Source: an uncultured delta proteobacterium
GTDB taxonomy: Bacteria > Myxococcota_A > Polyangia > Haliangiales > Haliangiaceae
DNA: 64,000 nucleotides
Direction: 5' to 3'
Assembly (NCBI GenBank): GCA_963848295.1
Contig: CAWKDB010000010.1
Location: 2,304,001-2,368,000, forward strand
Shown piece by piece: positions 3,020-9,117 of this stretch. Both the position numbers and the translations under genes were made by a program. The notes below the pieces were generated by a model. The model ran no database searches. It was not told the DNA's origin and was given only the letters and a program-made list of their open reading frames with translations. Each line of letters opens with the position of its first letter. The first letter of the stretch is position 1.

Positions 3020-3181
3020 GTGAAGCGCGGCCGGATTCTCGCGATCAAGTGGGGGATGAACCCGAACTCGTCGAGTCTCGGCGTCGACGTCACTTTCCTA
3101 CTTGTAGGTGCAACGGCGCTCGCGATGGTCACGCCACTGATCGGTGTGTTGCTGCGTTGGCGGCCGAAGCCGAAGTCGTAA
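3020..3181 (+). CDS. 53-aa small membrane peptide with NPNSSS motif (not in ORF track); candidate rSAM substrate
   Basis: GTG..TAA, MKRGRILAIKWGMNPNSSSLGVDVTFLLVGATALAMVTPLIGVLLRWRPKPKS; starts 12 nt after the TPR gene, same strand. Confidence 0.7.
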   Translation: MKRGRILAIKWGMNPNSSSLGVDVTFLLVGATALAMVTPLIGVLLRWRPKPKS

Positions 3182-3188
3182 CCAAATT

Positions 3189-3236
3189 CGCGCCGATTCA
3201 GCACGCCCGCGCCGATTCAGCAGTGCAAGATCGGCA
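3189..3236. repeat. 15-bp direct repeat CGCGCCGATTCAGCA x2 (period 19) plus a third YGC-N7-GCA box
   Basis: Copies at 3189-3203 and 3208-3222; TGCAAGATCGGCA at 3224-3236. Confidence 0.7.
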
Positions 3237-3259
3237 TGGCGGCGATCTGGGCTGGGACT

Positions 3260-3680
3260 AGCTCCTCGAGTCCTCGCGGAGCTGTTCATGACCGAGGCTT
3301 GTCAGGCCGCGGGCCGCGGCACGATCGCGATCGCGCCCGACGGTCTCGCCGCACTCGGCGCGTATCGCTGGCCCGGCAACGTCCGCGAGCTGAAGAACGC
3401 GATGGAGTACTTCGCGGCGACGCTGACAGCCCACATGCTCACCGCCGCCGAGGTCGCCGAGCGACTGGGGTCAAGGCCCGCCGCGCCGCCGGAGCGACCG
3501 ACGAGCGACGGCCCGCGGACGTTCGCGCCGATCGCCGACGAGATCCGCGCGCTCGAGATCGAGCGAATGACTCAGGCCCTCGAAGTCGCCAGCGGCAACC
3601 AGACCAAGGCGGCCGAGCTGATCGGGATGCCGCTGCGCACGTTCTTTACGAAGATGCGCCAGTACAATCTTCGCAAGTAG
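3260..3680 (+). pseudogene. C-terminal remnant of a sigma-54 activator (AAA+ lid + Fis HTH only)
   Basis: YRWPGNVRELKNAME and GNQTKAAELIGMPLRTFFTKM present; Walker A/B and GAFTGA absent. Confidence 0.75.
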
Positions 3681-3739
3681 CTGTCATTTCATCGCGATCG
3701 GCCTGCATCCAAAGGCGGCCCGGCGGCGAATACAGCTGC

Positions 3740-4315
3740 ATGACCGACTCGATCAGCACTGGCGGCGAAGGCGCTCGGGCGGATGAAGTGGCCTTGGTGG
3801 CGGCGGTCGCGCGCGGCGATCGCGCGGCCTTCGCGGCGCTGTACCGGCGGCACTCGGCGGTGCTGCTCGGGGTCGCGATCAAGATCGTGCGTGAGCGGCG
3901 CGAAGCCGAGGACTTGCTGCACGACGTGTTTCTCGAGGCGTGGCGGGCGGCGGGTGACTACGATCCGAAACGCGCGAACGTCCGGACCTGGCTCGCGCTG
4001 CGCATGCGATCGCGCGCGCTCGACGTCGTGCGATCGGCGCGCGTGGCGCGCAACGCCGGTGATGCCGGCATCGACGAGGTGCTCGACGAGCGAACGCCCT
4101 CCCCCGATCACGCGCGCGCGCGACGCGCTCTGCAGATGCTGCGCGCCGGCGAGCGCGAAGTGCTCGAGCTCGCGTACTTCGGCGGCCAGTCGTGCACCGA
4201 GATCGCGAAGCGACTCGCGATGCCCCTCGGTACCGTGAAGTCGCGGCTCGCCGATGGCATGAGGCGCTTGCGTGCGGTGCTCGTCGCCGGCCCGGTCGCG
4301 TCGCAACCGGCATGA
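3740..4315 (+). CDS. ECF sigma factor (SigK-like)
   Basis: GDRAAFAALY, AEDLLHDVFLEAW, EIAKRLAMPLGTVKSR. Confidence 0.9.
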   Translation: MTDSISTGGEGARADEVALVAAVARGDRAAFAALYRRHSAVLLGVAIKIVRERREAEDLLHDVFLEAWRAAGDYDPKRANVRTWLALRMRSRALDVVRSARVARNAGDAGIDEVLDERTPSPDHARARRALQMLRAGEREVLELAYFGGQSCTEIAKRLAMPLGTVKSRLADGMRRLRAVLVAGPVASQPA

Positions 4316-4334
4316 TAGCGTGCAGCCGATCGCC

Positions 4335-4893
4335 ATGCCCCAACCCGACGAGCGCATCGCGGTGACACCGCCGTTGCTCGCCCGCGTCGCGACCGGCGAC
4401 CCGGCGGCGGTTCGCGAGTGCATCGCGCAGTTCAGCGGGCTCGTGTGGTCGCTCGCGCGTCGCTTCGATCCGGCGGACGCGGAAGATGCAGCGCAGGAGA
4501 TCTTCTTGGATCTGTGGAAGAGCGCAGGTCGCTACGATGCCGCGCTCGGCTCGGAGGTGACCTTTGTCGCGACGATCGCTCGCCGCCGGCTGATCGATCG
4601 CCGCCGATTCTCGCGGGCGCCGGCCGACGACGGAGCAGCTCGTCGACCTCCCGGTCGCGGATCCGAGCGCCGGCCCCGCCGAATCGGCCGAGGCGACGAA
4701 AGCCGCCGCGGCGCTCGGCCAGCTGCGGCCGGAGCAGCGCGAAGTGCTCGTGCTATCCACGTGTCATGGCCTGTCGCACGGCGAAATTGCCGCGAAGACC
4801 GGCATGCCGCTCGGGACGGTCAAGGCTCATGCGCGACGTGGACTACTCTCGATCCGCGCGACACTCTTAGGCGTACGAACTGGAGAATCGTGA
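4335..4893 (+). CDS. Second ECF sigma factor, +1 frameshift at ~4616
   Basis: Region 2 (AEDAAQEIFLDLWKSAGRYD) in one frame; region 4 (HGLSHGEIAAKTGMPLGTVKAHARRG) in the next; TGA overlaps anti-sigma ATG. Confidence 0.85.
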
Positions 4894-5828
4894 TGGGTTC
4901 GTCGGTCAACGATCCGCGCGCTGAGGAGCTGCTCGTCGAGCAGGCGCTGCACGGCCTCGACGACCACGAGCGCCGGGAGCTCGAACAGCTCGGCGCTGCC
5001 GGCGACACGACGTTCGATCTCGCCGCCGCCGCGGTCGCCCAGGTCACGATCGATCGCGAGGAGATGCCGGCGCACGTGACCGCGAAGATCTTGGCGGCGG
5101 CACCCGCGCTCGACATGCGCCGGACGCTCACCGGAGTCGTCGCCCCGACCGAGCTGCCGCGCGACACGCTGGTCGGCGTCCAGCTCTCGGAGTTCACGCC
5201 CGCGTCCGAGCCCTCGGCGCTGCCGATGGCCATGCCGATGGCCGTGCCGGTGCCTGCGCCGGCAGCAGCTCCACTCGTCGCTCCGGTGGACGAGCTCGCG
5301 GCTCGACGCAACCGCTCTCGGTTCGCGACCGTCGCGCCATGGCTCGCTGCGGCGGCGTGCCTCGTGATCGCATCCGGCGCCGTGTTCTACGCCGCGCGCA
5401 ACGGCGGTGGTGGCACCGCGGCGTCGATCGTATCGGCCGCCGATGGCCGCGCCGCGCTCGTCAAGAACGCCACCGATCTGACGACGATCGCGTGGACCGC
5501 GACGAAGGATCCGGCCGCCACGGCGGCGACCGGCGACGTGATCTGGAGCGAGGCGCAGCAACGCGGCTACATGCGGTTCGTCGGGCTCGCCGCGAACGAT
5601 CCGAAACAGTTCCAGTATCAGCTGTGGATCTTCGACAAGAATCGCGACGACAAGTTCCCGGTCGACGGCGGCGTGTTCGACGTGTCCTCGACCGGCGAAG
5701 TGATCATCCCGATCACGGCGCGGCTCCGCATCGCGGACGCGACGCTGTTCGCGGTCACGATCGAGAAGCCGGGTGGCGTCGTCGTGTCGAAGCGCGAGCG
5801 CATCGTCGTGACCGCGGCCAAGGGGTAA
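4893..5828 (+). CDS. Anti-sigma factor, RskA-like
   Basis: Follows ECF; single TM (WLAAAACLVIA); C-terminal QYQLWI..FAVTIEKPGG motif. Confidence 0.85.
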   Translation: MGSSVNDPRAEELLVEQALHGLDDHERRELEQLGAAGDTTFDLAAAAVAQVTIDREEMPAHVTAKILAAAPALDMRRTLTGVVAPTELPRDTLVGVQLSEFTPASEPSALPMAMPMAVPVPAPAAAPLVAPVDELAARRNRSRFATVAPWLAAAACLVIASGAVFYAARNGGGGTAASIVSAADGRAALVKNATDLTTIAWTATKDPAATAATGDVIWSEAQQRGYMRFVGLAANDPKQFQYQLWIFDKNRDDKFPVDGGVFDVSSTGEVIIPITARLRIADATLFAVTIEKPGGVVVSKRERIVVTAAKG

Positions 5829-5840
5829 GCTCCCGGCGCG

Positions 5841-7001
5841 ATGCCGAAGCGACGCCGTCACGGCGATGACTTGCGCGGAGCGAGTCGGCTCGCGGTCGAA
5901 GCCACCCGCGGCGTCACCGCGCTGATCGAAGAGATGCACGCGACGATCGCGAGCGGCCCGGCGATCCTTGGCAAGCCGCTCGCGGTGCCGGCCAAGCTCG
6001 CGACCGGCGTCGTCTACGGCGCGGTCCGCGGCGTCGCGCAGCTCGTCGGCGCGGGCATCGACCTCGCACTCGCGCAGCTCGCCCCGCTGCTCGGCGCGAG
6101 CGCACCCGGCACCGATCGAGAGATCGTGCTCGGCGTGCTCGACGGCGTGCTCGGCGATTACCTGGTCGAGCACGGCAATCCGCTCGCGATCGCGATGGAG
6201 CTGCGCGATCACGGCGAGCGGAGCGCGACGAGCAAGCTCGTGGTGCTCGTCCACGGTCTGTGCGGCACCGACCACGACTTCGTGCGCTACGGTCCGGATC
6301 TAGGCGCGGCACTCGAGCGCGACCTCGGGTACACCGCGATCTACCCGCACTTCAACAGCGGACGGCACGTGTCGACGAACGGGCGCGAGCTCGCGATGCT
6401 GCTCGACCAGCGCGTCGCCGCATGGCCGGTTCCGCTCGACGAGCTCGTGCTGATCGGCCACAGCATGGGCGGGCTCGTAGCGCGCAGCGCGTGCCACGTC
6501 GCCGAGCTCGAGCACATGTCGTGGCGCGGCAAGCTCCGCACGCTGATCACGCTCGGTGCACCGCATCACGGCGCTCCGCTCGAGCGCGGCGGCAGCTGGC
6601 TCGATCTGTTGCTCGCGGTCAGCCGGTACAGCGCGCCGTTGCGCCGGCTCGGCCGGATTCGCAGCGCCGGCATCACCGACTTGCGCTACGGCAACGTGGC
6701 CGATCACGATTGGCAGGGCCGCGATCGCTTCGACCACGGCAGCGATCCGCGCGAGCTCGTACCGCTCCCCGCCGACGTCGCCTGCTACGCGGTCGCCGGG
6801 ACGTTGTCGCCGCAACCCGGCGGCAAGCCGCGCAGCGACGGCATCATCCCGGTCGCCAGCGCGCTCGGCCTGCACGATAACCCCGAGCTCGTGCTCGCGT
6901 TCCCCGAGACGCATCGGATGATCGCGTACGGCGTGGGCCACACCGACTTGCTCGGCGACGCGGCGGTCTATGCCGCGATCCGCGGCTGGCTAACGCGCTA
7001 A
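5841..7001 (+). CDS. Alpha/beta hydrolase (PGAP1/lipase-like)
   Basis: VLVHGL, GHSMGG nucleophile elbow, LGAPHHG, DG..P, GH. Confidence 0.85.
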   Translation: MPKRRRHGDDLRGASRLAVEATRGVTALIEEMHATIASGPAILGKPLAVPAKLATGVVYGAVRGVAQLVGAGIDLALAQLAPLLGASAPGTDREIVLGVLDGVLGDYLVEHGNPLAIAMELRDHGERSATSKLVVLVHGLCGTDHDFVRYGPDLGAALERDLGYTAIYPHFNSGRHVSTNGRELAMLLDQRVAAWPVPLDELVLIGHSMGGLVARSACHVAELEHMSWRGKLRTLITLGAPHHGAPLERGGSWLDLLLAVSRYSAPLRRLGRIRSAGITDLRYGNVADHDWQGRDRFDHGSDPRELVPLPADVACYAVAGTLSPQPGGKPRSDGIIPVASALGLHDNPELVLAFPETHRMIAYGVGHTDLLGDAAVYAAIRGWLTR

Positions 7002-7010
7002 GGTATCGCC

Positions 7011-8291
7011 GTGATCGCCACCCTTCGACGAGCGAGCGACGCGCTCGGTGCGATCGTCGAGCGATTACGTGCCGCGCGCAGTCATCCGCCGCGCAGGTCG
7101 CGGTTCGAGCGGTTCGGCGCGATCCTCCAGCTCACCGTGCCGCGCGCGCTCGTGTTCGTCGATCGCGCGATGGCACGACGCACGGTGACGATGCGCGGCG
7201 AGCCCCCCGAGTGGCGCGGCCCCGAGGGCGAGCTCGGGGACCACGTGCTGTCGGCGCCGCTCGAGGCGCACTTGCAGCTGACGAATCGCTGCGGCGCGGG
7301 CTGCGCTGGCTGCTACACCGGCGCCTCGCCGGCCGGCGGCCCGAACGAATGGGGGCTCGTCGAGTGGCAGCGCGCGGTCGACGTGCTCGCAGATGCCGGC
7401 GTGTTCCATCTCGCGCTCGGCGGTGGCGAGAGCGCGGTGCTGCCGTGGCTCGGCGAGCTCGCGGCGTACGCTCGCTCGCGCGGCTTGGTGCCGAACCTCA
7501 CGACCTCCGGGCTCGAAGGTCTCGATGCGCTCGTCGCGATCGCGGATCGGTTCGGGCAGATCAACGTCTCGCTCGACGGGCTCGAAGCGACGTACGCGGC
7601 CGTCCGCGGCTTCGATGGCTTCGCGCGTGCCGATGCCGCGATCTCGCGCCTGCGCGCGGTCAAGCGCGAGGTCGGCATCAATGTCGTCGTCACGCGTCAC
7701 AACATCGGCGAGCTCGACGCGATCTTCGCGTACGCCGCTCGCCGCCGGCTGTCCGAGGTCGAGCTGTTGCGGTTCAAGCCGTCGGGCCGCGGCGCGCGCG
7801 CGTACAATGATCTGCGCTGCACCGATGCGCAACACCGCGCGTTCTTGCCGAGCGTGCTCGCGTCCGCGCGCCGCCATCGCATTCGGGTCAAGGTCGACTG
7901 CTCGTACACGCCGATGCTCGCGCACCATCGCCCGGATCGCGCGTTGCTCGCCGAGCTCGCGGTCTACGGCTGCACCGGCGGTGATTTTCTCGTCGGCGCC
8001 AAAGCCGATGGTCGGCTGACCGCGTGCAGCTTCATGGGCTCACCGGCCGACCGCCCCGACGTCACGCAGCTCGCGACCTATTGGGATCGACCCGGCGCGT
8101 TCGGCGCGTTCCGCACGTGGCGCGATGCCGCGGAGCCGTGCGCGAGCTGCGAATATCACGCGTTGTGTCGCGGCGGCTGCAAGGTCGTGAGCGCGCACGT
8201 CAACGGCGATCCCGCGACGCCCGATCCCGAGTGTCCGCGCGTGATCGACCACGCGAGACCGCGGCCCCGCGTTCAGCTCCCCGTGTTATAG
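7011..8291 (+). CDS. Radical SAM/SPASM protein with N-terminal RRE-like segment (MftC/PqqE-like)
   Basis: CxxxCxxC (CGAGCAGC), GGGE, VSLDG, SPASM Cys (GCTGG..C..CASC...CRGGC..C). Confidence 0.9.
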   Translation: MIATLRRASDALGAIVERLRAARSHPPRRSRFERFGAILQLTVPRALVFVDRAMARRTVTMRGEPPEWRGPEGELGDHVLSAPLEAHLQLTNRCGAGCAGCYTGASPAGGPNEWGLVEWQRAVDVLADAGVFHLALGGGESAVLPWLGELAAYARSRGLVPNLTTSGLEGLDALVAIADRFGQINVSLDGLEATYAAVRGFDGFARADAAISRLRAVKREVGINVVVTRHNIGELDAIFAYAARRRLSEVELLRFKPSGRGARAYNDLRCTDAQHRAFLPSVLASARRHRIRVKVDCSYTPMLAHHRPDRALLAELAVYGCTGGDFLVGAKADGRLTACSFMGSPADRPDVTQLATYWDRPGAFGAFRTWRDAAEPCASCEYHALCRGGCKVVSAHVNGDPATPDPECPRVIDHARPRPRVQLPVL

Positions 8292-8301
8292 AGTCGGCGC
8301 C

Positions 8302-9117
<816 letters not shown>

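Follow-up and report, generated by a model that had tools for sequence, protein, structure and literature searches.

The described enzymes that most resemble the one studied here are radical SAM/SPASM proteins acting on proteins or on short ribosomal peptides. anSME enzymes (AtsB, anSMEcpe; PDB 4K36-4K39) modify sulfatases at a position that can be occupied by Cys or Ser, a substrate range described in the accessible parts of PMC10114670 and PMC5682303. The streptide-type maturases SuiB/StrB (PDB 5V1Q/S/T) are composed of an RRE, a barrel, and a SPASM domain. MftC (TIGR03962) and PqqE (TIGR02109; PDB 6C8V) act on small ribosomal peptides via an RRE. In its accessible part, PMC6231123 reports that RREs bind leaders as an added strand (SuiA does not bind the RRE of SuiB), that the auxiliary clusters of SuiB are fully ligated, and that the SPASM motif reads CX9-15GX4C..CX2CX5CX3C..C. 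Finally, short peptides are known to be crosslinked through a Ser/Thr oxygen by TqqB (ether) and to be epimerised by EpeE/YydG, according to the available text of PMC10114670 and PMC13012085. The former, a review, names in that text SPASM substrate recognition and product choice as open questions.

Here, we have analysed a stretch of DNA of 64,000 nucleotides (hereafter the window) that encodes a 53-residue micro-protein and, on the same strand, a radical SAM/SPASM enzyme (Table 1). We put the probability that the micro-protein is the dedicated substrate of this enzyme at roughly 0.8. Residue 17 of the peptide is probably the site of modification. That the product is formylglycine specifically, made by oxidising Ser17, or the corresponding Cys of relatives, at its side chain, is a tentative preference that we hold at somewhat less than even odds.

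Table 1. Coordinates in the window of the features discussed in the text.
Feature	Position	Strand	Remarks
TPR protein, N-terminal hydrophobic segment and four C-terminal hydrophobic helices	1880..3007	+	Conserved upstream partner
Micro-protein gene, 53 aa	3020..3181	+	Basic beta-strand leader, N-[S/C]-S-S motif, hydrophobic helix, basic tail
Leader, residues 1-11	3020..3052	+	Beta-strand predicted in natural fusion; gone where the enzyme is gone
Motif Gly12-Gly21	3053..3082	+	NPNSSS in 149/150 representatives; single exception Ser19Ala
Ser17 codon, candidate target residue	3068..3070	+	Read as Cys in one clade and as Gly in the clade without the enzyme
Hydrophobic helix, residues 20-45, likely membrane-embedded	3077..3154	+	Hydropathy, fusion model, persistence in relatives
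Intervening block	3182..7010		Sigma-54 activator remnant, two ECF sigma factors, RskA-type anti-sigma, alpha/beta hydrolase
Radical SAM/SPASM enzyme	7011..8291	+	Partial RRE-like N-domain, CX3CX2C (C94/98/101), eight invariant auxiliary Cys (297-408)
RRE-like domain, three strands (29-51) and one helix (52-58)	7095..7184	+	AF2 model; decays in fused enzymes
Glu251, sixth barrel strand	7761..7763	+	Gln/His where the enzyme's peptide has Cys

The enzyme and its closest described relatives

In the AlphaFold2 model of the free enzyme (pLDDT 94.7), a barrel lies between an N-terminal RRE-like sheet and a SPASM domain that resembles the one of SuiB. Residues 29-58 are predicted to fold into three strands and one helix ahead of the barrel, and this N-domain aligns with those of SuiB and SkfB, with one helix where the RRE fold has three; residues 1-86 match no profile. 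PF04055 is matched at 36.3 bits (cut-off, 29.5) and TIGR04085 at 34.6 bits (cut-off, 27). The best fold match is SuiB/StrB (Z 29.4, rmsd 3.7, 373 aligned residues, starting at residue 24), followed by SkfB (Z 27.5), CteB (25.0), PqqE, and anSME, and the identity of SuiB/StrB, SkfB, and CteB to the window enzyme is 16-18%. By sequence PqqE comes first (E 1.9e-37), and the best profile matches are MftC and PqqE (121.6 and 88.8 bits; 124.7 and 99 bits for the peptide-enzyme fusion P0289). These scores are far below the respective cut-offs of 265 and 381 bits, and no named NCBIfam equivalog is reached, MftC being the nearest. The peptide is also unlike MftA and PqqA, there are no mft or pqq neighbours, and the RRE is built into the window enzyme. 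As for streptide, its Lys-Trp motif is not found in the peptide core.

The cysteines of the enzyme are informative. C94, C98, and C101 are invariant in 67 enzyme sequences, and the seven-Cys SPASM motif is present as C321, G334, C339, C377, C380, C386, C390, and C408, with C321 nearly invariant in our alignment (A4). In total there are 11 invariant Cys, three plus eight, and the eight auxiliary ones align with Cys of SuiB, including Cys297; in both enzymes the first auxiliary Cys lies in the linker. The auxiliary clusters would then be fully Cys-ligated and all 11 Cys would act as cluster ligands, but Cys297 could instead be an H-donor. TqqB and EpeE/YydG differ in having a Twitch-type single auxiliary cluster, where the window enzyme has a full SPASM domain and no evident spare Cys.

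The comparison with anSME deserves particular attention. The two share the radical SAM/SPASM architecture, the eight auxiliary Cys, and a substrate position that is either Cys or Ser. However, the window enzyme is not an anSME. The fold match (Z 24.1, rmsd 3.4, 313 aligned residues) starts only at residue 82, and anSMEs lack the RRE-like N-domain. Their substrate is a sulfatase, whereas here it would be a hydrophobic micro-protein of which natural fusions with the enzyme are known. The motif recognised by anSMEs in sulfatases, C/S-x-P-x-R, is not present in the peptide. Furthermore, P-C-D-F of anSME aligns with P/A-C-S-F in the present enzymes, an invariant Ser340 replacing the Asp directly after the third auxiliary Cys (Asp277, which we take to be the base of anSME). 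The cluster ligands of anSME used here are those given in the accessible part of PMC5682303.

A micro-protein gene with a conserved polar motif

The first-pass annotation had proposed an uncalled, GTG-started gene of 53 codons directly after the TPR membrane gene, and the frame, its relatives, and the pattern of substitution all confirm it. The frame is open from its GTG to a TAA stop and starts 12 nt past the stop of the TPR gene. In a protein database search all 923 candidate proteins scored E<=10 as relatives of the peptide, and the best 120 of the 923 are 81-98% identical to it. Among the closest 80 of 297 GTDB loci, the codon differences relative to the window are mostly synonymous (1473, vs 363 non-synonymous), third codon positions hold 1568 of the 2048 base changes, and a start codon lies at most nine codons upstream of Gly4 in 79 of the 80. 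Hence, the frame is a genuine gene and not a chance one. It is single-copy in 43 of 61 related genomes, a count that takes in one unpublished genome (G010). Two other readings of the locus were rejected: an antisense frame of 63 aa, and the internal ATG (Met13) as the start codon, since Met13 varies (Tyr, Leu, Phe, Val) while the leader is conserved. An exact direct repeat of 15 nt (3189-3203 and 3208-3222) lies just 3' of the stop codon, at the left edge of the inserted block described below.

The peptide matches no Pfam, NCBIfam, or PHROG family, and nothing above chance was found for it among PDB sequences or in the ESM Atlas. A supposed kinship with Asn-Ser-rich motifs of phage hypothetical proteins was not supported by a scan of the genome itself or by PHROGs. 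The named records that carry the peptide are nearly all Myxococcota (Kofleriaceae, Haliangiales), with a few bearing other labels, and place in that phylum the similar peptides that the first-pass annotation had put next to radical SAM/SPASM genes in other deltaproteobacteria.

All four parts attributed to the peptide in the first-pass annotation (leader, NPNSSS core, helix, basic tail) are found in the sequence. The highest 19-residue hydropathy window covers residues 20-38 (mean 1.88) and is followed by the basic tail; as to the membrane span, hydropathy by itself suggests it. The family consensus is G-x3-N-[S/C]-S-[S/A]-x-G followed by the hydrophobic helix. A profile of the peptide matched 557 clusters of a library at 50% identity, and in the best 150 of these Asn14-Pro15-Asn16-Ser17-Ser18 and Gly21 are invariant while Ser19 varies once. 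The expectation that the peptide would be conserved was therefore borne out. A short precursor-like gene linked to a maturase, with a leader and a conserved core, is the arrangement typical of RRE-dependent RiPP systems, and the peptide gene shows it.

Co-occurrence, fusion, and covariation with the enzyme

The peptide had been proposed to work with the TPR protein and the radical SAM enzyme, and their linkage proved strong. In one draw of 301 genomes of the phylum, searched for the three proteins, the peptide was found in 56 (50 by profile, plus six divergent copies beside the enzyme) and orthologues of the enzyme also in 56. The enzyme is present in 55 of the 56 peptide genomes, and the peptide in 55 of the 56 enzyme genomes; in a seventh enzyme-bearing genome missed by the peptide profile, the enzyme is at the start of a contig. 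The TPR/four-helix profile was matched in at least 58 of the 301 genomes, and all three proteins occur together in 52. The genomes counted are kin and hence not independent, yet the carriers are spread across many families.

Proximity tells the same story. Among the closest 80 of 297 GTDB loci, an enzyme orthologue lies within 7 kb of the peptide in 61 and the TPR gene is present in 47; where 5 kb or more of sequence was available beyond the peptide (55 loci), the enzyme follows within 400 nt in 32. In the window it sits 3.8 kb downstream, beyond the ECF/anti-sigma/hydrolase block that the first-pass annotation had already noticed between the two. Since the enzyme is often within 400 nt of the peptide and the content of the block varies among relatives, we regard the block as an insertion that is not part of the system. 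Directly 3' of the peptide, it contains a remnant of a sigma-54 activator (3270-3680, +) of which only the AAA lid and the Fis helix-turn-helix are left. Its second ECF sigma factor (4272-5828 and 4744-4893, +) appears frameshifted, with region 2 in the frame of the RskA-type anti-sigma factor and a region-4-like stretch in another frame, which could be an assembly indel or a real break. Two further genes, an NtrC-type regulator before the TPR gene (2-1276) and a PPDK/PEP-synthase regulatory kinase after the enzyme (8302-9117), are found in most Kofleriaceae-type loci and not in distant ones.

The peptide comes in two main forms. The Ser form is found in 26 of the 56 genomes and is a separate gene every time. 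The Cys form, N-C-S-[S/A], is found in the other 30, and in 19 of these it is fused in frame to the N terminus of the enzyme. An independent search matched the peptide profile to 36 longer proteins; 31 of these contain PF04055, and 30 of the 31 are clean Cys-type fusions. Two long proteins that look like Ser-type fusions (P0276 and P0291) arise from read-through across a frameshift and were set aside. In a quick tree of the enzyme, one branch (SH-aLRT 96) parts the Ser from the Cys forms, and the fused state requires three changes. The AlphaFold2 model of one fusion (P0278, pTM 0.93) predicts leader residues 8-13 as a strand (pLDDT about 84) and places the hydrophobic helix confidently (pLDDT 90-95). 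Alignments of this model to PFL-activase, NifB, and BioB begin at motif residues 12-27, whereas those of the free enzyme to known folds begin mostly at 82-83, and some at 42-46. The model thus suggests that the motif sits on the barrel near the RRE.

Fusion was accompanied by decay of the RRE. Its signature, R31-E33-[FW]35-G36, is intact in all 38 free Ser-type enzymes and in 10 of 11 free Cys-type ones, and in only 6 of 18 fused enzymes. The median score of the domain is 55, 52, and 9 bits in the three groups, while the core segments fall only to 43-51 bits. This suggests that the domain becomes dispensable once the peptide is tethered. One may then ask whether tethering is the whole function, i.e., whether the peptide is an unmodified, split-off N-terminal anchor or activator that attaches to the TPR membrane complex an enzyme acting on a lipid, a cofactor, or the phosphatase discussed below. 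Binding alone would explain the decay of the RRE, the fusions and their confidently modelled helix fit it well, the peptide is single-copy in most genomes, and the helix outlasts the loss of the enzyme. We nevertheless find this unlikely. A tether has no need for an invariant polar motif in which one site admits only Ser or Cys, nor does it require Gly at that site when the enzyme is lost. Moreover, peptide and enzyme are far apart in several genomes, and three genomes have two copies of the peptide at separate loci, two of them with one enzyme.

Some loci with separated genes are worth describing. Three (L256-L258, in G071, G107, and G077) show an operon of TPR protein, peptide, thioredoxin-like lipoprotein, and purple acid phosphatase, with the enzyme elsewhere and a second copy of the peptide in each genome. 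In G438 a Cys-type peptide has no adjacent enzyme, yet orthologues exist elsewhere in the genome (450 and 392 bits); its tail has a long His-Glu dipeptide repeat (L325).

The loss of the enzyme provides an additional pattern. Fourteen genomes of one family have kept the TPR, peptide, and small membrane genes and lack the orthologous enzyme, the best enzyme-like score being 70-196 bits vs 367-551 bits for orthologues. They form one clade (support 81), and we therefore count a single loss. All 14 peptides have lost the leader strand and retained the hydrophobic helix. Nine, from five genera and with diverged flanks, read N-G-S-S, keeping Asn16 and both Ser after residue 17; five are Gly-rich. 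The register that places Gly at residue 17 requires a one-residue deletion in the alignment, and five of the 14 peptides also lack the Asn and Ser, which would fit decay instead of replacement. Two other arrangements could be stages of enzyme loss: an inverted enzyme gene behind an otherwise complete operon in a sister of the enzyme-less clade (G295, L284), and a fused enzyme that ends past the first auxiliary cluster region and before the second auxiliary cluster (G167, L223).

Glycine is the usual mimic of a D-residue, which raises the possibility that the enzyme is an epimerase producing D-Ser or D-Cys at residue 17, with Gly as an achiral stand-in keeping a backbone turn, perhaps a phosphate-binding anion nest. 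The persistence of N-G-S-S across five genera despite diverged flanks is what such a turn would predict. Still, this seems quite improbable, because EpeE needs a spare H-donor Cys (Cys223, in the accessible text of PMC13012085) and here the 11 Cys can be accounted for as three plus eight cluster ligands. In addition, the fold of EpeE matches far less well (Z 16.8), and a reaction at C-alpha leaves the covariation described next unexplained.

Among 426 alignment columns, only two (251 and 298) completely split Ser-type from Cys-type enzymes. When the set was enlarged, all 69 Ser-type enzymes had Glu at residue 251 and all 51 Cys-type ones had Gln or His there; at residue 298 there was a single exception. 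Three control splits of the enzyme tree yielded 6, 5, and 0 diagnostic columns. As read from the alignment, the switch at residue 251 is chemically apt and statistically a single branch.

Candidate chemistry and possible role in the cell envelope

Four patterns have to be explained together: the Cys-form fusions, the decay of the RRE in them, Gly17 where the enzyme is missing, and the switch at residue 251. Binding of the leader plus alteration of residue 17 would be the simplest account of all four. With the co-occurrence, they support the first-pass proposal that the peptide is a radical SAM substrate, which these comparative data make likely. Against it, the Ser/Cys and Glu/Gln switches share one branch, and six of the 18 fusions retain an intact RRE signature.

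As to the chemistry, we propose that the enzyme would grip the basic leader strand, adding it to the RRE sheet, and that the 5'-deoxyadenosyl radical would abstract a C-beta hydrogen of residue 17, the electron being carried off by the two fully Cys-ligated auxiliary clusters. Glu251 might be the base for the less acidic hydroxyl of Ser, dispensable for Cys. A base needed for Ser only fits side-chain chemistry, and the combination of Ser/Cys interchange with fully ligated clusters is the signature of anSME; both favour oxidation to formylglycine. Against this product, the enzyme is nearer to SuiB, SkfB, and PqqE than to anSME by fold and by sequence.

This proximity favours a different outcome, a heteroatom crosslink in which the Ser17 oxygen (ether) or the Cys sulphur (thioether) is joined to a neighbouring carbon, for instance of Asn16 or Asn14, in a small ring. 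The nearest folds, SuiB, SkfB, and CteB, are crosslinkers; TqqB, as described in the available text of PMC10114670, links the hydroxyl of a Thr to C-alpha of the Gln next to it, a close analogue of Asn16-Ser17; and the invariant Asn16 and the Glu/Gln switch fit equally well. We consider a crosslink rather unlikely, given that, with eight invariant Cys, no auxiliary site would stay open in the way described for CteB in the accessible part of PMC6231123. Furthermore, Asn16 and the two following Ser are conserved in the nine enzyme-less N-G-S-S peptides, which shows that their conservation is explicable without a crosslink.

The genes around the peptide in more distant genomes bear on both its processing and its role. 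We inspected 40 distant loci of up to 20 kb each, some genomes contributing more than one. Their upstream TPR/four-helix genes are homologous to that of the window (hhalign 95.7-98%), whose start would be a CTG overlapping the upstream stop. The enzyme is followed by a three-helix protein in 21 of the 40 loci and by a His-rich four-helix protein in 15. Neither has a family match; the former was not found in the window genome and the latter only weakly. The four-helix protein (L289:11422-11847 and relatives) is an unnamed protein of 140-150 aa with conserved His (HGH, HP, FExKEH) whose Atlas clusters are also unnamed, and by its sequence it is possibly heme-binding. No protease or exporter recurs among the neighbours of the 40 loci. 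Hence, of the two parts of the first-pass description of a RiPP-like or modified micro-protein, the second agrees better with the data: a modified subunit that stays in the membrane is more plausible than the release of a natural product.

Class III signal peptides have an acidic residue five places after the Gly, and some variants of the peptide have one at this place at the start of the helix. A prepilin-type cleavage site could thus be envisaged, as could an N-glycosylation sequon, N-X-S being retained in the Ser, Cys, and Gly forms, or other chemistry at the motif (side-chain scission to Gly, dehydration, backbone cleavage). We regard this group as very improbable. The window peptide lacks the acidic residue, Ser18 is never replaced by Thr in the 150 representatives as it would be in a true sequon, and neither an oligosaccharyltransferase nor a prepilin peptidase is among the recurring neighbours of the 40 loci.

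After the enzyme and the TPR gene, the most frequent neighbour is a purple acid phosphatase (PF16656 and PF00149), found within about 10 kb in 16 of the 40 distant loci (14 genomes, 9 families) and alongside a phosphate-selective porin in three. The window genome has three such phosphatases in 7.8 Mb, which gives an expectation of about 0.8% per 20 kb if the other genomes are alike. No phosphatase was found near the window locus or any Kofleriaceae-type locus (closest 80 of 297). A second TPR/four-helix gene of the window genome (L236, G000:C1:34000-46000) is preceded by genes for a phosphate-selective porin and a purple acid phosphatase; neither peptide nor enzyme adjoins it. Four other genomes (L239-L242, in G179, G193, G267, and G292) have TPR/four-helix homologues without matches to peptide or enzyme, three of which adjoin a purple acid phosphatase. 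The pair of TPR protein and phosphatase may be the older core, and the system is possibly linked to phosphate scavenging.

Under the preferred reading, that of a substrate oxidised at residue 17, the modified peptide would reside in the membrane as a subunit of the TPR/four-helix protein complex. The fusions and the basic run after the helix would put the C terminus inside, and hence the motif outside once inserted, away from the enzyme. Modification would thus have to take place in the cytoplasm before insertion, a timing that must be assumed. The aldehyde might then face the periplasmic TPR domain, and the module might scavenge or sense phosphate esters with the purple acid phosphatase; these last steps are the most speculative of the scheme. 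Taken as a whole, a self-contained formylglycine system can be imagined. In it, a SuiB-like enzyme would install an aldehyde at the N terminus of a single-helix subunit, in cis in the fusions. The TPR/four-helix protein, with the three-helix and His-rich four-helix proteins, would present it in the periplasm, where it could be a reactive group or a covalent tether in phosphate-ester scavenging with the phosphatase. In this complete form the scheme is doubtful. If true, formylglycine would occur outside the sulfatase fold, and a radical SAM enzyme would be joined in one chain to the substrate on which it acts.

The main texts of the open literature yielded no description of the motif or the system, and PMC12452194, in its accessible part, concerns other enzymes. 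The system fits no named family and would likely be an undescribed myxobacterial protein-modification system. A radical SAM/SPASM subfamily that has no name and occurs in 56 of 301 sampled genomes of the phylum thereby gains a specific candidate substrate and residue. It also comes with natural controls: the peptide exists in Ser, Cys, and Gly forms and both free and fused, and one residue of the enzyme changes along with the substrate. In a Cys-type fusion, which is one protein, a single mass measurement would separate an aldehyde (-18 Da) from a thioether (-2 Da) and an epimer (0 Da). If true, the proposal would give protein labelling a useful new enzyme that converts Ser or Cys to an aldehyde and has a short, portable leader. 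With a modified membrane micro-protein in a TPR/phosphatase module, chemistry of this kind would reach beyond secreted peptides and sulfatases into complexes of the cell envelope.
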